Shown: in pieces, positions 41,783 to 64,000 of the stretch
Position numbering within the stretch: position 1 is the first letter of the stretch
Layout: each line of letters starts with the position of its first letter
Source of the DNA: an uncultured virus (IMG/VR IMGVR_UViG_3300044845_000975)
Taxonomy: Duplodnaviria > Heunggongvirae > Uroviricota > Caudoviricetes
Virus record (IMG/VR): IMGVR_UViG_3300044845_000975
Reading direction: 5' to 3' (one strand)
DNA length: 64,000 nt
The notes under the pieces: model-generated
Told to the model about the DNA's origin: nothing
Databases searched by the model: none
Seen by the model: the letters and a program-made list of their open reading frames with translations, nothing else
Translations under genes and position numbers: made by a program

Positions 41783-42130
41783 ATGAACAAACATACCATC
41801 ACAATCGGAGACAGCAGTTACATTATTGACCTTGATCGAGCACAGGAACTTGGCATCTGCACTAAGAAGCAGTCCATCACCAGCTTCGAGGTTGGCGATG
41901 TTTTTGAAACGCGAAGCGGTCTTGTTCGCATTCTTATTATCGAATGCAACTGCGGTACCCCTAGCAATGAAACGCTCTACCAATTTGCTGGTCGCGACGG
42001 CCTGAGCACTTACAGCGATCATGATAATCCTATTTCTTACGACAAGATGCTTGAGTATCTAAACAGCAGGGGTTATACTTTTGTTTGCAACATCAATGAT
42101 AGTATTGCAGAGCTTCTTAACAGCATTTAA
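41783..42130 (+). CDS. hypothetical protein
   Basis: Promoter TTGACA(41749)-N16-TATAAT, ATG 6 nt downstream. Confidence 0.7.
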   Translation: MNKHTITIGDSSYIIDLDRAQELGICTKKQSITSFEVGDVFETRSGLVRILIIECNCGTPSNETLYQFAGRDGLSTYSDHDNPISYDKMLEYLNSRGYTFVCNINDSIAELLNSI

Positions 42131-42187
42131 GTTTTAAATAGAATAAAAATTTTGGATGCATGATGAAATCGGTAAACATAGCGGACT

Positions 42188-42871
42188 CTTGAGGGTCGGT
42201 GCATTGGAAACGATGCATTTGTAAGGTGTAAATTCGGTGAACGGTTTAAACTCCCAACGCCGAGCGAAGCTAAAGAAATCTAAAGTAAGTTTGGTAACTT
42301 AGTCTGTATTGGTGTAAATACTAATATGGAAAAAGAAACTAAATTAGCTTATGTGGCAGGATTTATTGATGGAGAAGGTTGTTTAGCAATAAACAAAAGA
42401 ACTCATCGAAATAGAAACGGCGAATGGATAGGGTACTCTTGTTATGTTGATTTAGCAAATACCAATAAAGAAGTAATGGATTTTATAAGAGATTTTTTAA
42501 AAATATCTTCTAAAGTTTATGAAAATAAGTTAAAAGGTAATCGCAAATTAGCATACAGATTGCGTCTAAACATGAACGAATCTAAAAAACTGCTCTCTTT
42601 GATTGGAAAGTATTTAATAGTCAAAAAAAAACAATGCCGAGTATTTTTAGATTTCTGTGAAAACAGTAAAGATAAAGAAAAAAGAGAAGTTCTTTGGCTT
42701 GAAATGAAAAAACTTAATCATAGAGGTCTTTAGACCGTGTAGAGACTATAATCACCTATCTAAAGTTTCAGAAACGATGTGAATAAGACCCGTCAACACT
42801 CTGAAACAATGATAAAGGCATAGTCCAGACCACAAACAGAGAAATCTGGTAGTGAAAACTATAGTGGTAAG
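42188..42871 (+). mobile_element. group I intron (684 nt) in tRNA-Leu
   Basis: 5' exon ends in U paired with G in P1 (GACU/GGUC); P2 with GAAA loop; P3 AGGTG/CACCT; P-like AAATTCGGTGAA and Q-like AACGCCGAGC elements; P7 GACTAT/ATAGTC; two GAAA-capped P9 hairpins; terminal G. Confidence 0.92.
42326..42733 (+). CDS. intron-encoded single-motif LAGLIDADG homing endonuclease
   Basis: LAYVAGFIDGEG, YLIVKKKQ; located between the Q and R elements (P6 region). Confidence 0.9.
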   Translation: MEKETKLAYVAGFIDGEGCLAINKRTHRNRNGEWIGYSCYVDLANTNKEVMDFIRDFLKISSKVYENKLKGNRKLAYRLRLNMNESKKLLSLIGKYLIVKKKQCRVFLDFCENSKDKEKREVLWLEMKKLNHRGL

Positions 42872-42956
42872 TAAAATCCGCTGGCGAAAGCCTTGCCAGT
42901 TCGATCCTGGCTGCATCCACCAATTTCGGTTAAGACCCACCAAAACTATCAAAATT

Positions 42957-59989: not shown

Positions 59990-60283
59990 ATGAATACCGA
60001 AACAAAACGCCGTGGCCGCCCATCAGGAGCTAAATCACTTGTTAACATCACGCTGAGGCAGCTTAATGAACTTTTTCCTCTTGATGCTTCTGTGCCAGTT
60101 GGCGCAATCTGGCTTCGCGAATACGGTGTGACCGTGAAATCCCACGCTCCCATTGTAGTGCATGAAGCAGAACCAGAGATTGAAGAAGAAGAAAAAATCC
60201 AATTCACCGTTACTCATTACAGCGGCGAAAATGAACAACTTCCTGATCCCCCTGATGAGATTTTTGTTGACATGAGCGAGTAA
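59990..60283 (+). CDS. hypothetical protein with AT-hook-like RRGRP
   Basis: Promoter TTGACA(59954)-N16-TATATT. Confidence 0.65.
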   Translation: MNTETKRRGRPSGAKSLVNITLRQLNELFPLDASVPVGAIWLREYGVTVKSHAPIVVHEAEPEIEEEEKIQFTVTHYSGENEQLPDPPDEIFVDMSE

Positions 60284-60319
60284 TCGCTTATAGTATCAGC
60301 CTTAACAAGAACCACCCTT

Positions 60320-61228
60320 ATGAACAAAGCATTCAACGAAATCGTCGGACAAGAACACATCAAGCGTCAACTCAGCTTCTACTTGGACTCTTACAAGGCA
60401 ACGGGCGTTTTGCCCTTCCTGATGTTCAACGGTCAGCGCGGCATTGGCAAAACAGAATTCGCTCGCGCTGTTGGCACTGCTTGCAAGAAAACCTTCTACG
60501 AGATTAACAGCAGCAGCATTAAAAACGAAAAACAATTCTTCGAGCAAATGATGCCGCAGATTCAAGACACTGAATGCTGCTTGTTCTTTGATGAGAGTCA
60601 CGAACTCCCGCGCAAGCTGGTTGTTGCTTTCCTCAGCGTTCTTAACACTGAAAAGAAAAGCGTCGTTTACTACACCTATCAGGATGTGGAATACCGCTTC
60701 GACTTCACAAAGATGAGCTTCATCTTCGCAACGACTGAAATGGATCGTTTGTTTGCGCCCTTCAAGGATCGCCTTACTGTAGTGGACTTTGTGCCATACA
60801 GCAATGATGAAGTTAAACGCATTATTCAAAAGCGTTTGCCTGATGTGAAGTTTGAAGCTGGCGTCTTGAATGAGATTAGCACCACGATTCGCGGCAATGC
60901 TCGCAGTGCAGTTAAACGCGCAAAAGATATTGAGATGTATTGTGAGGCAAACAACAACCCTAGCTTCACTATGCCTGATTGGGTTAACCTTTGCGACAAG
61001 GCCAACATTAACAAGCGCGGCCTCAGCAACACTGAGATTCAAATTCTCAATGCTCTCAAGGAGCGCGGCCCGCTCACTCTCACTATGCTTTCCGCCATCA
61101 CTGGCCTCAGCGTGCAAGCTCTTCGCAAGGATGCTGAACTTCACTTGCTCAAGATGAACTTGATTCGCATTGATGGCAAGCGCGAATTAACAAGCGTAGG
61201 AATGCGCTTTCTTGAAACAATTGTCTAA
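60320..61228 (+). CDS. ruvB: Holliday junction branch migration ATPase RuvB-like
   Basis: F..IVGQ, GQRGIGKT, FFDE.H, FATT, RG.AR, GL...E, winged-helix E..L...GKR. Confidence 0.8.
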   Translation: MNKAFNEIVGQEHIKRQLSFYLDSYKATGVLPFLMFNGQRGIGKTEFARAVGTACKKTFYEINSSSIKNEKQFFEQMMPQIQDTECCLFFDESHELPRKLVVAFLSVLNTEKKSVVYYTYQDVEYRFDFTKMSFIFATTEMDRLFAPFKDRLTVVDFVPYSNDEVKRIIQKRLPDVKFEAGVLNEISTTIRGNARSAVKRAKDIEMYCEANNNPSFTMPDWVNLCDKANINKRGLSNTEIQILNALKERGPLTLTMLSAITGLSVQALRKDAELHLLKMNLIRIDGKRELTSVGMRFLETIV

Positions 61229-61288
61229 CGGTGGTTCGTTGACAGCCCCCCTTTCTCTTGGTTGCTAGGGGATTGGGGGGCAAATAAT

Positions 61289-61364
61289 GCGCTCGTAGCT
61301 TAATGGACAAAGCACCGTTTTTCTAAATCGGTGATTACAGGTTCGAGTCCTGTCGAGCGTGCCA
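61289..61364 (+). tRNA. trnR: tRNA-Arg(UCU)
   Basis: GCGCTCG/CGAGCGT-G-CCA; loop TTTCTAA; A20; one U-U mismatch in the anticodon stem. Confidence 0.85.
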
Positions 61365-61443
61365 AATCAAAAAATGCCAAATAAGAAAGCGCCAAATAAC
61401 AAATAACAAAAAGGCAAATAACAAATAAGAAAACGCCAAATAG
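61363..61443 (+). repeat. low-complexity CAAATAA repeats
   Basis: About seven CAAATA(A) units after tRNA-Arg. Confidence 0.7.
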
Positions 61444-61504
61444 TAAACACGATTTCTCTTAATAAGAGATAAGCAAAAAACTCCTAGTCTGTAGGTGAGA
61501 GTAT

Positions 61505-61551
61505 TAGGGATTATACCTACCCAGGGCCGCCTGCTATAGGTATTTTACCTA
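61505..61551. repeat. 47-bp dyad element, copy 1 (core inverted)
   Basis: TAGG-gattata-CCTA-cccagggccgcctgcta-TAGG-tatttta-CCTA. Confidence 0.9.
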
Positions 61552-61564
61552 GGTAGAGGGCATG

Positions 61565-61586
61565 AAAAAGCGCGGTTTCCCGCGCT
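61565..61586 (-). terminator. intrinsic terminator
   Basis: gcgcgg-gaaa-ccgcgc plus T-tract on the minus strand. Confidence 0.85.
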
Positions 61587-61598
61587 CTTGTTATTTAT

Positions 61599-61757
61599 TT
61601 AATGCCTTTCAATCCACTTGTCAACAAAGTTTTCCGCTTCTTCTTCCGTGTCGAAAGAATAAACTTCTAGCGCATTATCGTTTTCATCAGTTTCGCGGAC
61701 ATCCCATTTCAGAGTCTCGTCGTTAAATTCAGGGCAGAGGTCAAGCAGGATTTCCAT
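61599..61757 (-). CDS. small acidic protein (52 aa, not in ORF track)
   Basis: MEILLDLCPEFNDETLKWDVRETDENDNALEVYSFDTEEEAENFVDKWIERH; paralog of 59778-59948. Confidence 0.8.
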   Translation of the reverse strand: MEILLDLCPEFNDETLKWDVRETDENDNALEVYSFDTEEEAENFVDKWIERH

Positions 61758-61761
61758 AGTG

Positions 61762-62067
61762 TTATTTAAGATACGCCATTCCGTAAGGGCCGCAACCAGA
61801 AAGCGCGTCCTGATTAAAAATATTTCCGCGAGCGTGCATGGCTGGCGCTTTCCAGCTTGCTGCTTTCAGCAAGTCTCCATTGCTCAAGTCAATGAAACCA
61901 TAAGCACTAGTATTAGAACCATCTTTTTTAATGATTCGCGCAAAGCGTTTTCCCATAGAGATTTCTACTTTAGGCGCTGGCAATGTTGGGAATGTTTTGT
62001 TGTGATGCTTCTCAAGCATATCTTGAAGAGAGGCACAAAATGTTTCGATTTGTTTGGTGATGTCCAT
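61762..62067 (-). CDS. conserved phage hypothetical protein
   Basis: S.YGFID..NGDLLKAASWKAPA.HARGNI; promoter TTGATT-N16-TATCTT, ATG 5 nt downstream. Confidence 0.8.
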   Translation of the reverse strand: MDITKQIETFCASLQDMLEKHHNKTFPTLPAPKVEISMGKRFARIIKKDGSNTSAYGFIDLSNGDLLKAASWKAPAMHARGNIFNQDALSGCGPYGMAYLK

Positions 62068-62126
62068 GGGATAAGATAGCAGAAAGTGAGAATGAATCAA
62101 CTCTTTTTTATCTATTTTTATTTGCT

Positions 62127-62173
62127 TAGGAGGTTTACCTAACCAAGGCGGCCCTGGGTAGGTATTTTACCTA
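62127..62173. repeat. 47-bp dyad element, copy 2
   Basis: TAGG-aggttta-CCTA-accaaggcggccctggg-TAGG-tatttta-CCTA. Confidence 0.9.
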
Positions 62174-62188
62174 GGGACAAGACATAAG

Positions 62189-62210
62189 AAAAGGGGCGGT
62201 TTCCCGCCCC
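62189..62210 (-). terminator. intrinsic terminator
   Basis: ggggcgg-gaaa-ccgcccc plus T-tract on the minus strand. Confidence 0.85.
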
Positions 62211-62224
62211 CGTAGGGATTTTGT

Positions 62225-62995
62225 TTAAGCTTCCATCATTAGCTCACTTTTGTCGATTTCCGTTTGAATCACTGAGTTGTGCCCAGCGCGAGCATCAAAG
62301 ATGCTCTGCATGGTCATCGTTCGGGCGGGCAGCTTGCTAAGGTCGCCACCTTTGAGGCATTCAGTAACGCCATTGTAAAGGCTCCATAGAGTGTGCCCGT
62401 TGAATTCGGGATGATTAGGCGTGCGAAACTGCTGCATGATGGGGTAAACTTCGCGGGCGGGGATTGCCTTAGCGTCTGCCAGTGACATGATGAGGCCCGC
62501 CGCTTCATCTTCAACAAGTTCGATTGTCTTATAGTTATCAATGCGGTTAGTCATGTCCGAGAAGTGAGAGACACAACGGCCAACAGCTTCCGACAGCACC
62601 CGCGCAATGTCGCGCAAGATGTTTGTCGTGTGCTTGCGGGCAAGCTTGATGTCAGAAGAGAAGCAAAGATTTTCACACACAAGCATTCGATTTCCGATGC
62701 AAATGCTGGCAGCAAAGCTCTTGTCGTGCGCGTTGCGCAGGCCAAGCACTAGTTCACGGTCGGTGGCATTGACATCTTTCCCGACGATTGAGAAGCCGCC
62801 AAAATAGCGTTGGCCCATGCGGGCGAGCGCGTGTTCCTCTTCTTTGATTGAAAAGCCAGCGCGGGCGATTGCTTCGCGCATCTGGTCAACAAGAAGAGCA
62901 TGGCCGATGGGCTGGAAGCTTTCCGTGGCGGCAGGGGTAGCGACGGTCAAGAGTTGTTCAGCGGATACTTTGTTTTTTGCGATGAGGAGTGACAT
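62225..62995 (-). CDS. DUF932-like protein
   Basis: PI.H, RYFG, LGLRNAHDKS, VCENL, KHT, TLWSLYN.VTE. Confidence 0.75.
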   Translation of the reverse strand: MSLLIAKNKVSAEQLLTVATPAATESFQPIGHALLVDQMREAIARAGFSIKEEEHALARMGQRYFGGFSIVGKDVNATDRELVLGLRNAHDKSFAASICIGNRMLVCENLCFSSDIKLARKHTTNILRDIARVLSEAVGRCVSHFSDMTNRIDNYKTIELVEDEAAGLIMSLADAKAIPAREVYPIMQQFRTPNHPEFNGHTLWSLYNGVTECLKGGDLSKLPARTMTMQSIFDARAGHNSVIQTEIDKSELMMEA

Positions 62996-63104
62996 GATTT
63001 TTTTGTTTTCTATTTGGTTCGTTGGTTTCTTTAACGTGCATAAGATAACAGAAAGGAAACAAAAGTCAACAGTGAACAGCGTTTTTTCTGCATTTTTATT
63101 TGCT

Positions 63105-63151
63105 TAGGTGTTTTACCTATCCAGGGCGGCCCTGGGTAGGTATTTTCCCTA
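63105..63151. repeat. 47-bp dyad element, copy 3
   Basis: TAGG-tgtttta-CCTA-tccagggcggccctggg-TAGG-tattttc-CCTA. Confidence 0.9.
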
Positions 63152-63164
63152 GGGCTAACTTAAG

Positions 63165-63190
63165 AAAAAGAGGGCGGATCACTCCGCCCC
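63165..63190 (-). terminator. intrinsic terminator
   Basis: gggcgga/tccgccc stem plus T-tract on the minus strand. Confidence 0.8.
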
Positions 63191-63259
63191 CCTAGGTGAT
63201 TTAGCTAATTCGTCTGAGCGCGGCGATTACAGCCACTAAGAAGATGACTAGTATTTCCA

Positions 63260-63892
63260 TTAGTGCTTAGGGTAAAAGACTACGGGTTGATTCTTATCCC
63301 AGCAAGCGCGGCAAGGGCCGCACACTCCGCCTTGCTTGTAGGCGGGGCAGGTAACTTTCTCAGGGTTACTAGTAACGCCCGACATAGTAACGCCCGCACG
63401 TTCAGCCGCGCCCGTAGGCAATGGCCCATCCATCATATAGGCAGAAAGCCTAACTGTCAAATTCTCAGGAAAGCTGCCATGCTTAAGAACATAGGCATTA
63501 ACCGTAGCATATTCCCTAGTTGGAATCCAGTGGCGCACGTCAGAAGTTTTCTTACATACGGCAACGATATTCTCTAGATGTTCGAGGGATTGAATGTCTC
63601 CCGAATCATGCCAGCGGAAAACATTAATTCCCGATTGCATGATTTGAAAAGCCATCGCTTCAACCCACAGGGGATGAGAAAGACTTTCAAGACGACGTTG
63701 CAAAGCACGCTTCACATTGCCAAACACATAACGCCCCTTTAGAGCGTAGCATTTAGAGCAGATGGAGCCAGCAACGGCACGAAGCTTACTGCCGACAAGG
63801 CAAGCCTGCGCGGGGATGGAATAGGCAAACCCTGGCATTTTAGATGGCTTAGACAAGCCGCCAGTGATTTCTTTAGCAAGTAGTGGAGTCAT
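63260..63892 (-). CDS. GP88-family protein (radical-SAM-like Cys motif)
   Basis: SKMP, C...C..CYA.KG.Y, FRWHDSGD, HWIPTRE, C-terminal CPA...C..CRACW; promoter TTGACT-N16-TAACCT. Confidence 0.75.
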   Translation of the reverse strand: MTPLLAKEITGGLSKPSKMPGFAYSIPAQACLVGSKLRAVAGSICSKCYALKGRYVFGNVKRALQRRLESLSHPLWVEAMAFQIMQSGINVFRWHDSGDIQSLEHLENIVAVCKKTSDVRHWIPTREYATVNAYVLKHGSFPENLTVRLSAYMMDGPLPTGAAERAGVTMSGVTSNPEKVTCPAYKQGGVCGPCRACWDKNQPVVFYPKH

Positions 63893-64000
63893 GGTTTACA
63901 GGTTAGCAGATTAATCTTCAAAGTCAATACCCATGGAACGCAATTCGCGCCCCACGTTAGCGAGTGAAACAAGATGTTCTTTTGAATCCTCGCCCTCGTC

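Follow-up and report, generated by a model that had tools for sequence, protein, structure and literature searches.

The split tRNA-Leu(UAA) gene

The DNA analysed here is a 64,000-nucleotide (nt) stretch, hereafter the window, from an uncultured virus (IMG/VR record IMGVR_UViG_3300044845_000975). Its gene content is of phage type, including a tail protein J homologue, a minor tail protein, RIIA, RIIB, a ClpB-like ATPase and a clamp loader, and the window is phage DNA. On the plus strand, positions 42154 to 42922 hold a tRNA-Leu(UAA) gene interrupted by a group I intron (42188-42871, 684 nt), and the intron itself contains an open reading frame (ORF) for a single-domain LAGLIDADG homing endonuclease (42326-42733, 135 amino acids); all features of the locus lie on this strand. 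An earlier note on this DNA, made from its letters alone, had described a group I intron in a phage tRNA-Leu(UAA) gene, and this description is supported by the intron anatomy, by a covariance model of related introns (R1) and by the tRNA call on the joined exons. The finding is real and was correctly read; the locus is less singular than first thought, and the family behind it is more interesting.

The 5' exon (42154-42187, 34 nt) comprises the 5' strand of the acceptor stem, the D arm, the 5' strand of the anticodon stem, C32 and U33. The 3' exon (42872-42922, 51 nt) begins with U34, A35 and A36 and continues through the remainder of the loop, the 3' strand of the anticodon stem, a long variable arm, the T arm and the 3' strand of the acceptor stem to the discriminator A and CCA. 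When the two exons were joined with their flanks, ARAGORN called an 85-base tRNA-Leu(taa) of type II, in which the variable arm is long and the CCA is encoded; both the coordinates and the complete tRNA that the earlier note had given are exact. The anticodon stem is GCGGA/UCCGC, and the only cut that leaves a 7-nt anticodon loop falls between U33 and U34. This cut cannot slide, because a C follows exon 1 and a G precedes exon 2. The predicted ligated-exon junction consists of GGACU followed directly by UAAAAUCC, with the anticodon loop CUUAAAA. As the sole cut giving a 7-nt loop, the proposed splice site CU^UAA, after U33 and one base 5' of the classical site, is upheld. Introns of the classical type Leu.3Ug are inserted between U34 and A35; the insertion here is between U33 and U34.

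The split gene escapes the usual scanners, as had been predicted. On the raw window, ARAGORN found three ordinary tRNAs and none at 42154-42922, its intron mode likewise reported no tRNA there, and the Rfam tRNA and Intron_gpI models, applied to the whole region and to the 3' half, gave no match at the split gene even at E<=10.

Anatomy of the intron

The insert is a group I intron that resembles the IC3 type of tRNA introns in its compact build and ends in the omega-G at 42871. P1 (42184-42197) is formed by the exon sequence GACU (42184-42187) and the internal guide GGUC (42194-42197), with four of four pairs and U33.G at the 5' splice site. It is followed by P2 (42199-42206/42211-42218; 8 base pairs (bp), GAAA loop). 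The core contains P3 (AGGUG at 42224-42228, CACCU at 42753-42757), P4 (42234-42239/42258-42263, 6 bp), P5 (42243-42244/42253-42254, 2 bp), P6 (5' strands 42264-42266 and 42270-42276, 3' strands 42727-42733 and 42736-42738; 3 + 7 bp), P7 (GACUAU/AUAGUC, 42744-42749/42820-42825) and P8, which has 4 bp (42757-42760/42811-42814) and an 8-bp extension (42765-42772/42800-42807). Two GAAA-capped hairpins near the 3' end (42837-42840/42845-42848 and 42849-42853/42858-42862) were provisionally assigned to P9 and P9a. As blocks, the 5' half of the core spans 42199-42276 and the 3' half 42727-42871. P4 and P5 are given in the register of the family, and the first 3' hairpin was redrawn as a GAAA hairpin from the sequence. 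By direct reading, every listed core pair is standard. The U.G pair in P1, the terminal G, P3, P7 and the provisionally named P9, on which the proposal of a group I intron had been based, are all present. In the family alignment the window keeps 40 of the 41 invariant columns and 34 of the 35 nearly invariant ones.

P5 is a short hairpin without P5abc, and the window aligns colinearly with phage Leu.3Ug introns; a kinship with IC3 is suggested through these phage introns only. The four classical types of bacterial tRNA intron belong to IC3 (Williams 2020).

The "GTGTAA motif" that the earlier note had assigned to the ORF proved to be part of a 9-nt repeat, GGTGTAAAT, present at 42225-42233 (P3/J3-4) and again at 42311-42319. 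The second copy lies 7-15 nt upstream of the ATG of the ORF. There is also a direct repeat, CTAAAG, at the start of P6 (42270-42275 and 42280-42285), either copy of which could pair with CTTTAG at 42728-42733.

A family of tRNA introns in phages

A first scan of viral contigs used a P4-P6 pattern common to the window and Agrobacterium phage Atu_ph07 and matched at least 120 contigs; by an exon-join test with ARAGORN, 62 of the 120 matches listed contain a split tRNA. Curation by eye left 54 non-duplicate loci, which together with Atu_ph07 and the window make up 56 rows. The largest class, with 37 rows, is Leu(UAA) with the classical CUU/AAAA site. Arg(UCU) accounts for four rows, the CAU anticodon for four with the intron at position 2 and three at position 5, Asn for two, and Gln, Ile(UAU), Lys and Thr for one each. 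Leu(UAA) introns at position 2 fill the other two rows, namely the window and locus L046.

For the covariance analysis, 47 ORF-less introns were aligned (alignment A2), with P7 and the P9 hairpin added to the consensus by hand. In A2, 94.5% of the cells are paired, versus 74.1% in shuffles and 30-41% when the partners were slid by 1-3 columns. Compensatory changes were found in 36 of the 46 pairs, the P3/P7 pseudoknot included, and none of 500 shuffles reached the observed values. The model R1 was built from A2 with the window left out. Across the 64 kb, R1 gave only two matches, both on the plus strand and corresponding to the two halves of the 42188-42871 intron. The 5' half was matched at 42183-42300 (model positions 1-120) with 56.1 bits and an E-value of 3e-17, about 40 nt of this match being partly circular; the 3' half was matched at 42720-42871 (model positions 97-207) with 75.9 bits and an E-value of 1e-22, the alignment stopping exactly at the omega-G, and both E-values come from a short calibration. 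The Rfam Intron_gpI model does recognize ORF-less relatives. Among 11 loci of relatives, it scored L004 at 56.9 bits and L046 at 56.2 bits, above its gathering score of 50; L341 (47.2 bits), L104 (46.3 bits) and L239 (35.2 bits) fell below it, all with E-values of 1e-5 or better. A further pattern, TAGTN{4,5}AAGTAAAATC, was too unspecific: it hit at least 115 loci, and none of the 115 listed has an intron core.

The family counts at least 62 split tRNA genes from the first scan and 21 more from a second scan described below. Among its members is the cultured Agrobacterium jumbo phage Atu_ph07 (MF403008.1, L001), which has an unannotated split tRNA-Leu(UAA) gene at 1252-1619 of its locus, with the classical CUU/AAAA site. 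The intron of this gene (1286-1563) is an ORF-less group I intron of 278 nt, and an annotated "hypothetical protein" coding sequence (1561-1677) that overlaps the 3' exon is probably spurious. The unannotated records of three uncultured huge phages of 595-735 kb (LR756501, LR756503 and LR756511) contain stretches 73-76% identical to a Leu 33/34 intron together with its exons, and judging from these stretches the three phages probably carry such tRNA introns too.

Splice site, guide and lineage

In the aligned introns, the base before the cut is a U opposite a G in the same alignment column in all 48 rows, and in all but one of the 48 the pairing with the exon extends to the next two bases of the guide. 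The guide varies with the exon: it is GAGU for exons ending in ACUU (Leu and Gln), GAG for those ending in CUU (Arg, Lys, Thr and Ile), GUG for those ending in CAU and GGUC for those ending in GACU, the window among them. The shift by one base from the classical tRNA-Leu intron is therefore encoded in the ribozyme itself. The classical tRNA-Leu site, CUU/a...g/AAAA, defines type Leu.3Ug, and position 2 is the site of the classical tRNA-fMet intron, fMet.2Ug (Williams 2020). In the same nomenclature the window intron is "Leu.2Ug".

The second scan, with a pattern across the 3' junction of the window, retrieved 24 viral contigs. In 21 of them a tRNA-Leu(UAA) gene is split after U33 by an intron of 199-790 nt, with the guide GGGUC or GGGUU near its 5' end. 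Two others, L333 and L338, were rejected as Leu 33/34 introns, being chance matches to the junction pattern; in L331 the 3' exon is present, and a search of the 1,450 nt preceding the 3' junction revealed no 5' exon. The tRNA exons of the 33/34 contigs are only 59-80% identical to those of the window, which indicates that the Leu 33/34 intron type has spread over diverse phage tRNA-Leu genes.

A tree of the introns (IQ-TREE, unrooted, 194 core columns) places the window in a clade with five other Leu 33/34 introns and the tRNA(CAU) position-2 intron L104, with an ultrafast bootstrap (UFBoot) value of 96 and apart from the Leu introns at the classical site. The members of this clade have in common a J7/3 that is one base shorter and the P3 sequence AGGUG/CACCU. 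It is hardly likely that the 33/34 position is a recent one-base slide, within the window's phage, of a classical 34/35 Leu intron that represents no separate lineage. The two sites are indeed next to each other, the guides of the two classes fall in identical alignment columns, and core identity to some 34/35 introns reaches 70-76%; however, a slide of this kind fits neither the well-supported clade away from the 34/35 Leu introns nor the derived features found throughout it. These data are most simply explained by a "2Ug" lineage with members in tRNA(CAU) as well as tRNA-Leu(UAA) genes, whose common exon end, ACU, it uses. The intron had been regarded as independent in origin, and this holds in so far as it lies outside the main 34/35 Leu clade, but it is no unique event, as the 21 similar contigs show. 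Another Leu.2Ug intron, L046, stands elsewhere in the tree, and introns may have arrived at the 33/34 site repeatedly. The Arg, Gln, Ile and Thr introns are nested among the Leu.3Ug introns, so switching between tRNA species seems to be common in the family.

The endonuclease gene in P6

The ORF lies wholly inside the P6 loop; the 3' strand of P6 is made up of its final codons and its TAG stop. Its product matches PF00961 with 40.7 bits (cut-off 23.1) and PF14528 with 31.2 bits (cut-off 22.5). In the motif GFIDGEG, D15 is invariant and E17 is present in at least 90% of 16 family members; on our reading of this motif, a conserved acidic residue would be catalytic. The family profile matches I-MsoI, I-CreI and I-CvuI over their full length. 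An AlphaFold2 model of the product (predicted local distance difference test score, pLDDT, 93.1) has an alpha-beta-beta-alpha-beta-beta-alpha fold, for which Foldseek returned I-Vdi141I, I-CreI and I-MsoI at probability 1.00, with template modelling (TM) scores of 0.71-0.77. By sequence and predicted structure, the product is an I-CreI-like single-domain LAGLIDADG protein. The Pfam match, the profile, the modelled fold and the position inside the loop together bear out the 135-residue LAGLIDADG ORF in P6 that had been described.

In a protein search, 37 of 53 candidates reached E<=1e-3, and these include a fragment of the window itself. Fifteen are close relatives (43-73% identity, 135-144 amino acids), all of them metagenomic, and a family scan of the genomes of 185,579 species found no close relative of the endonuclease, the best identity being 31-36%. 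Where the DNA around them could be read, relatives occupy comparable positions. One with 53% identity lies in P6 of an intron that splits tRNA-Leu at the classical site, 34/35 (L239), two with 41-45% in further tRNA-Leu 34/35 introns (L240 and L241), where the ORF is broken by a stop or frameshift, and one with 48% in P6 of a tRNA-Asn(GUU) intron at 35/36, with the cut CUGU/UAA (L343); a more distant relative (35%, L242) resides in P6 of a group I intron outside any tRNA. Among 160 related loci, split R1 matches flank the LAGLIDADG ORF only in L239, L240, L241 and L343. The LAGLIDADG lineage is thus tied to P6 of introns in tRNA genes, and there to three insertion positions: 33/34 and 34/35 in Leu and 35/36 in Asn. 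In the near-identical L240 and L241 (around 1500-1900 of the locus) the frame stops after about 20 codons and resumes in another frame, which is either a decaying endonuclease gene or a sequencing error. The contig of L343 carries two intron-bearing tRNA genes in tandem (1-207 and 240-980); the upstream intron, cut by the contig end, scores 97.9 bits with R1, and the second is the tRNA-Asn intron with the LAGLIDADG gene.

Introns longer than about 400 bp may hold genes (Williams 2020). In the present sample, introns of 650-790 nt contain HNH-like ORFs of 156-200 amino acids, with the motif recognized by eye, both in Leu.2Ug introns (L321 and L328) and in Leu.3Ug introns (L018, L043 and L019); that of L328 is antisense to the tRNA, that of L321 sense. 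The presence of both HNH-like and LAGLIDADG ORFs indicates that endonuclease genes of different families entered the introns independently. The statement that classical introns typically lack an ORF fits the sample, although some phage Leu introns carry HNH-like ORFs.

The LAGLIDADG protein could instead be mainly a maturase that aids folding of the intron, or serve in both roles. A bacterial LAGLIDADG maturase is known, the protein of the Thermotoga neapolitana 23S intron (PMC3984707), and an intron whose P6 is split by about 450 nt of ORF may need help in folding. On the other hand, the family as a whole keeps the acidic residues of the motif, which fits nuclease activity, and ORF-less relatives of the intron, about 200 nt long, do without such a protein. 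We consider a maturase role, whether predominant or combined with cleavage, rather unlikely, and return to the endonuclease in the following.

Proposed splicing and homing

We propose that the phage tRNA-Leu(UAA) gene carries a 684-nt group I intron between U33 and U34 that splices and that homes by means of its I-CreI-like P6 gene, and we place the probability of this interpretation at roughly 85%. In the precursor, the exon sequence GACU would pair with the guide GGUC to form P1, and U33, wobble-paired with G, would define the 5' splice site. The first step would be attack by a guanosine cofactor after U33; the terminal G at 42871 would then take the same site, and the freed 3'-OH of U33 would join U34 to give the normal CUUAAAA loop. 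These steps follow the textbook group I pathway, and the anatomy that supports them is observed. The anticodon stem GCGGA/UCCGC would hold the exons together, as Zaug et al. (1993) reportedly described for the Anabaena intron.

As expected of its endonuclease family, the LAGLIDADG protein would most likely act as a homodimer whose substrates are tRNA-Leu(UAA) genes without the intron in related phages that infect the same cell. It would cut them near the DNA of the anticodon loop, and for this family a 4-nt 3' overhang within a few bases of the 33/34 insertion site would be expected; a homodimer would suit this target, since the target contains the inverted repeat of the anticodon stem. In mixed infections the intron would then spread as the cut is repaired from the copy that carries it, and the intact endonuclease gene suggests that the intron is mobile.

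Several observations weigh against this interpretation. In the ribozyme, alignment column 170, just 3' of P6, is C in the window and otherwise an invariant A, and P5 has only two standard pairs. The earlier note had called for a check with group I covariance models, and here the outcome was divided: R1 matches both halves of the intron, but the Rfam model Intron_gpI (RF00028) gives no match on the window itself, where the ORF splits the core, and 6 of 11 loci of relatives are without a match to it at E<=0.01. R1 and the ORF-less relatives were used because the Rfam model cannot bridge the ORF of about 450 nt; yet the seeds of R1 were gathered with a P4-P6 pattern that also occurs in the window, hence the partial circularity, and the model was only briefly calibrated. 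As to the ORF, no clear Shine-Dalgarno sequence precedes its ATG, and tblastn detected this ORF or a remnant of it in none of 20 other Leu 33/34 introns. PHROGs labels its family "HNH endonuclease", contradicting Pfam and the fold; in view of PF00961, the profile matches and the fold, we regard this as a mislabel. Finally, no public RNA contig or read joins 42187 to 42872, the runs being sampled as small shares and contigs that are uninformative on splicing. The RNA-library contigs on the region derive mostly from related introns, and the two close matches to the window, at 42253-42358 and 42587-42758, may stem from precursor, excised intron or contaminating DNA.

Some of these points would also be expected if the intron were real but its splicing lost or poor, the tRNA-Leu gene being a pseudogene and the ORF the sole part under selection. 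The changed invariant position, the minimal P5 and the failure to see a spliced product in public RNA contigs are in line with such a loss, and folding could suffer from the size of the P6 insert and from the extension of P8. However, the other 40 of the 41 invariant positions and every helix are kept, and the exons form a flawless tRNA with CCA. Moreover, at least 0.81 of the sampled words of the window are present in 14 public DNA runs from lake water (some of them perhaps the source sample), and the phage sequence recurs there near-unchanged with its intron, including a 2,101-nt contig with a single mismatch. Loss or impairment of splicing thus appears very unlikely, and a functional, spliced tRNA gene is the preferred reading.

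The public RNA runs contained no clear transcript of the window's phage. A contig from one RNA library (run X15), which belongs to a related 33/34 intron, joins the terminal G (equivalent to 42871) to 42221, near the 5' end of that intron, with 32 other letters between them; the joint lies just before the guide GGGUC, and no exon sequence intervenes. A circularised excised intron would give such a joint, an assembly artefact being the alternative.

Comparison with known systems

The classical trnL(UAA) intron of cyanobacteria and plastids, compared here through phage Leu.3Ug introns, resembles that of the window in its tRNA gene and anticodon, in its compact P1-P9 core without P5abc, and in its U.G pair and omega-G. 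It differs in the cut (CUU/AAAA, versus CU/UAAAA in the window), in the guide (GAGU versus GGUC) and in its clade; the window intron, moreover, is found in a phage and carries an endonuclease gene. With the tRNA-fMet intron of Synechocystis (fMet.2Ug), whose endonuclease is I-Ssp6803I, the window intron shares the position after U33 and an endonuclease presumably aimed at anticodon-loop DNA, whereas the tRNA of the window is Leu and its endonuclease a LAGLIDADG protein. I-Ssp6803I belongs to the PD-(D/E)XK type. The nearest non-Leu relative in the sample is the tRNA(CAU) position-2 intron L104, with 78% identity over 183 core columns; by eye, the anticodon stem of its tRNA is without the three G-C pairs typical of initiators, and this tRNA is probably not an initiator.

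Group I introns with an embedded homing endonuclease gene are known from phages, namely in T4 td and nrdB, in the DNA polymerase genes of SPO1 and Bastille and in the DnaB helicase genes of crAss-like phages. Unlike the present case, these interrupt protein-coding genes, and their endonuclease genes are mostly of the GIY-YIG or HNH families. The 3' core of the window (P7'-P9) is 85-89% identical over 59-61 nt to the DnaB helicase introns of two crAss-like phages. These matches, at about position 1500 of loci L002 (Kolpuevirus "frurule") and L003 (phage cr111_1), fall in split replicative DnaB genes whose introns carry GIY-YIG genes. I-CreI, I-MsoI, I-CvuI and I-Vdi141I are like the window protein in their single LAGLIDADG motif, their length of about 135-170 amino acids, their fold and their full-length profile matches, but they are only 16-23% identical to it and sit in rRNA introns, whereas the putative target of the window protein is a tRNA gene.

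In the literature searched, no description was found of phage tRNA genes with group I introns or of tRNA introns that contain a LAGLIDADG gene. A 2014 review places all phage introns then known in protein-coding genes, despite the many phage tRNA genes (PMC3984707), and a 2018 preprint on Lak megaphages calls unclassified tRNA introns previously unreported and enigmatic (10.1101/356790). The types of bacterial tRNA group I intron have since been extended from 4 to 21 (Williams 2020). Two algal organelle papers report LAGLIDADG ORFs in cox1 or rRNA introns and not in trnL.

Phage tRNA inventories are undercounted, because scanners miss intron-split genes. The present family is a well-sampled set for the co-evolution of a ribozyme guide with an endonuclease target, and compact LAGLIDADG enzymes aimed at tRNA-gene DNA would be new raw material for meganuclease work. 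Tentatively, and with little confidence, we suggest that a large unannotated IC3 radiation in phage tRNA genes hops from one tRNA species to another by small changes in its 4-nt guide and that the P6 LAGLIDADG lineage has been re-aimed at no fewer than three anticodon-loop sites. If so, the family would be a natural series of coupled ribozyme and endonuclease retargeting. On this reading the tRNA-Leu(UAA) gene of the host, whose anticodon-arm DNA hardly differs from that of the phage gene, might also be cut during infection.

Setting of the locus

A comparison of 24 kb of the window with 50,697 GenBank phage records by megablast gave no match. Upstream of the split gene, a promoter-like site (TTAACA, 16 nt, TAGAAT; 42117-42144, plus strand) agrees with the consensus at 10 of 12 positions and ends 9 nt before the start of the tRNA. 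The evidence for a promoter is weak, since the region holds seven such sites and shuffles give 6.4 on average. At 60001-64000 the G+C content rises to 0.47, compared with about 0.35 elsewhere in the window, and this segment adjoins a tRNA cluster at 58.7-61.4 kb.

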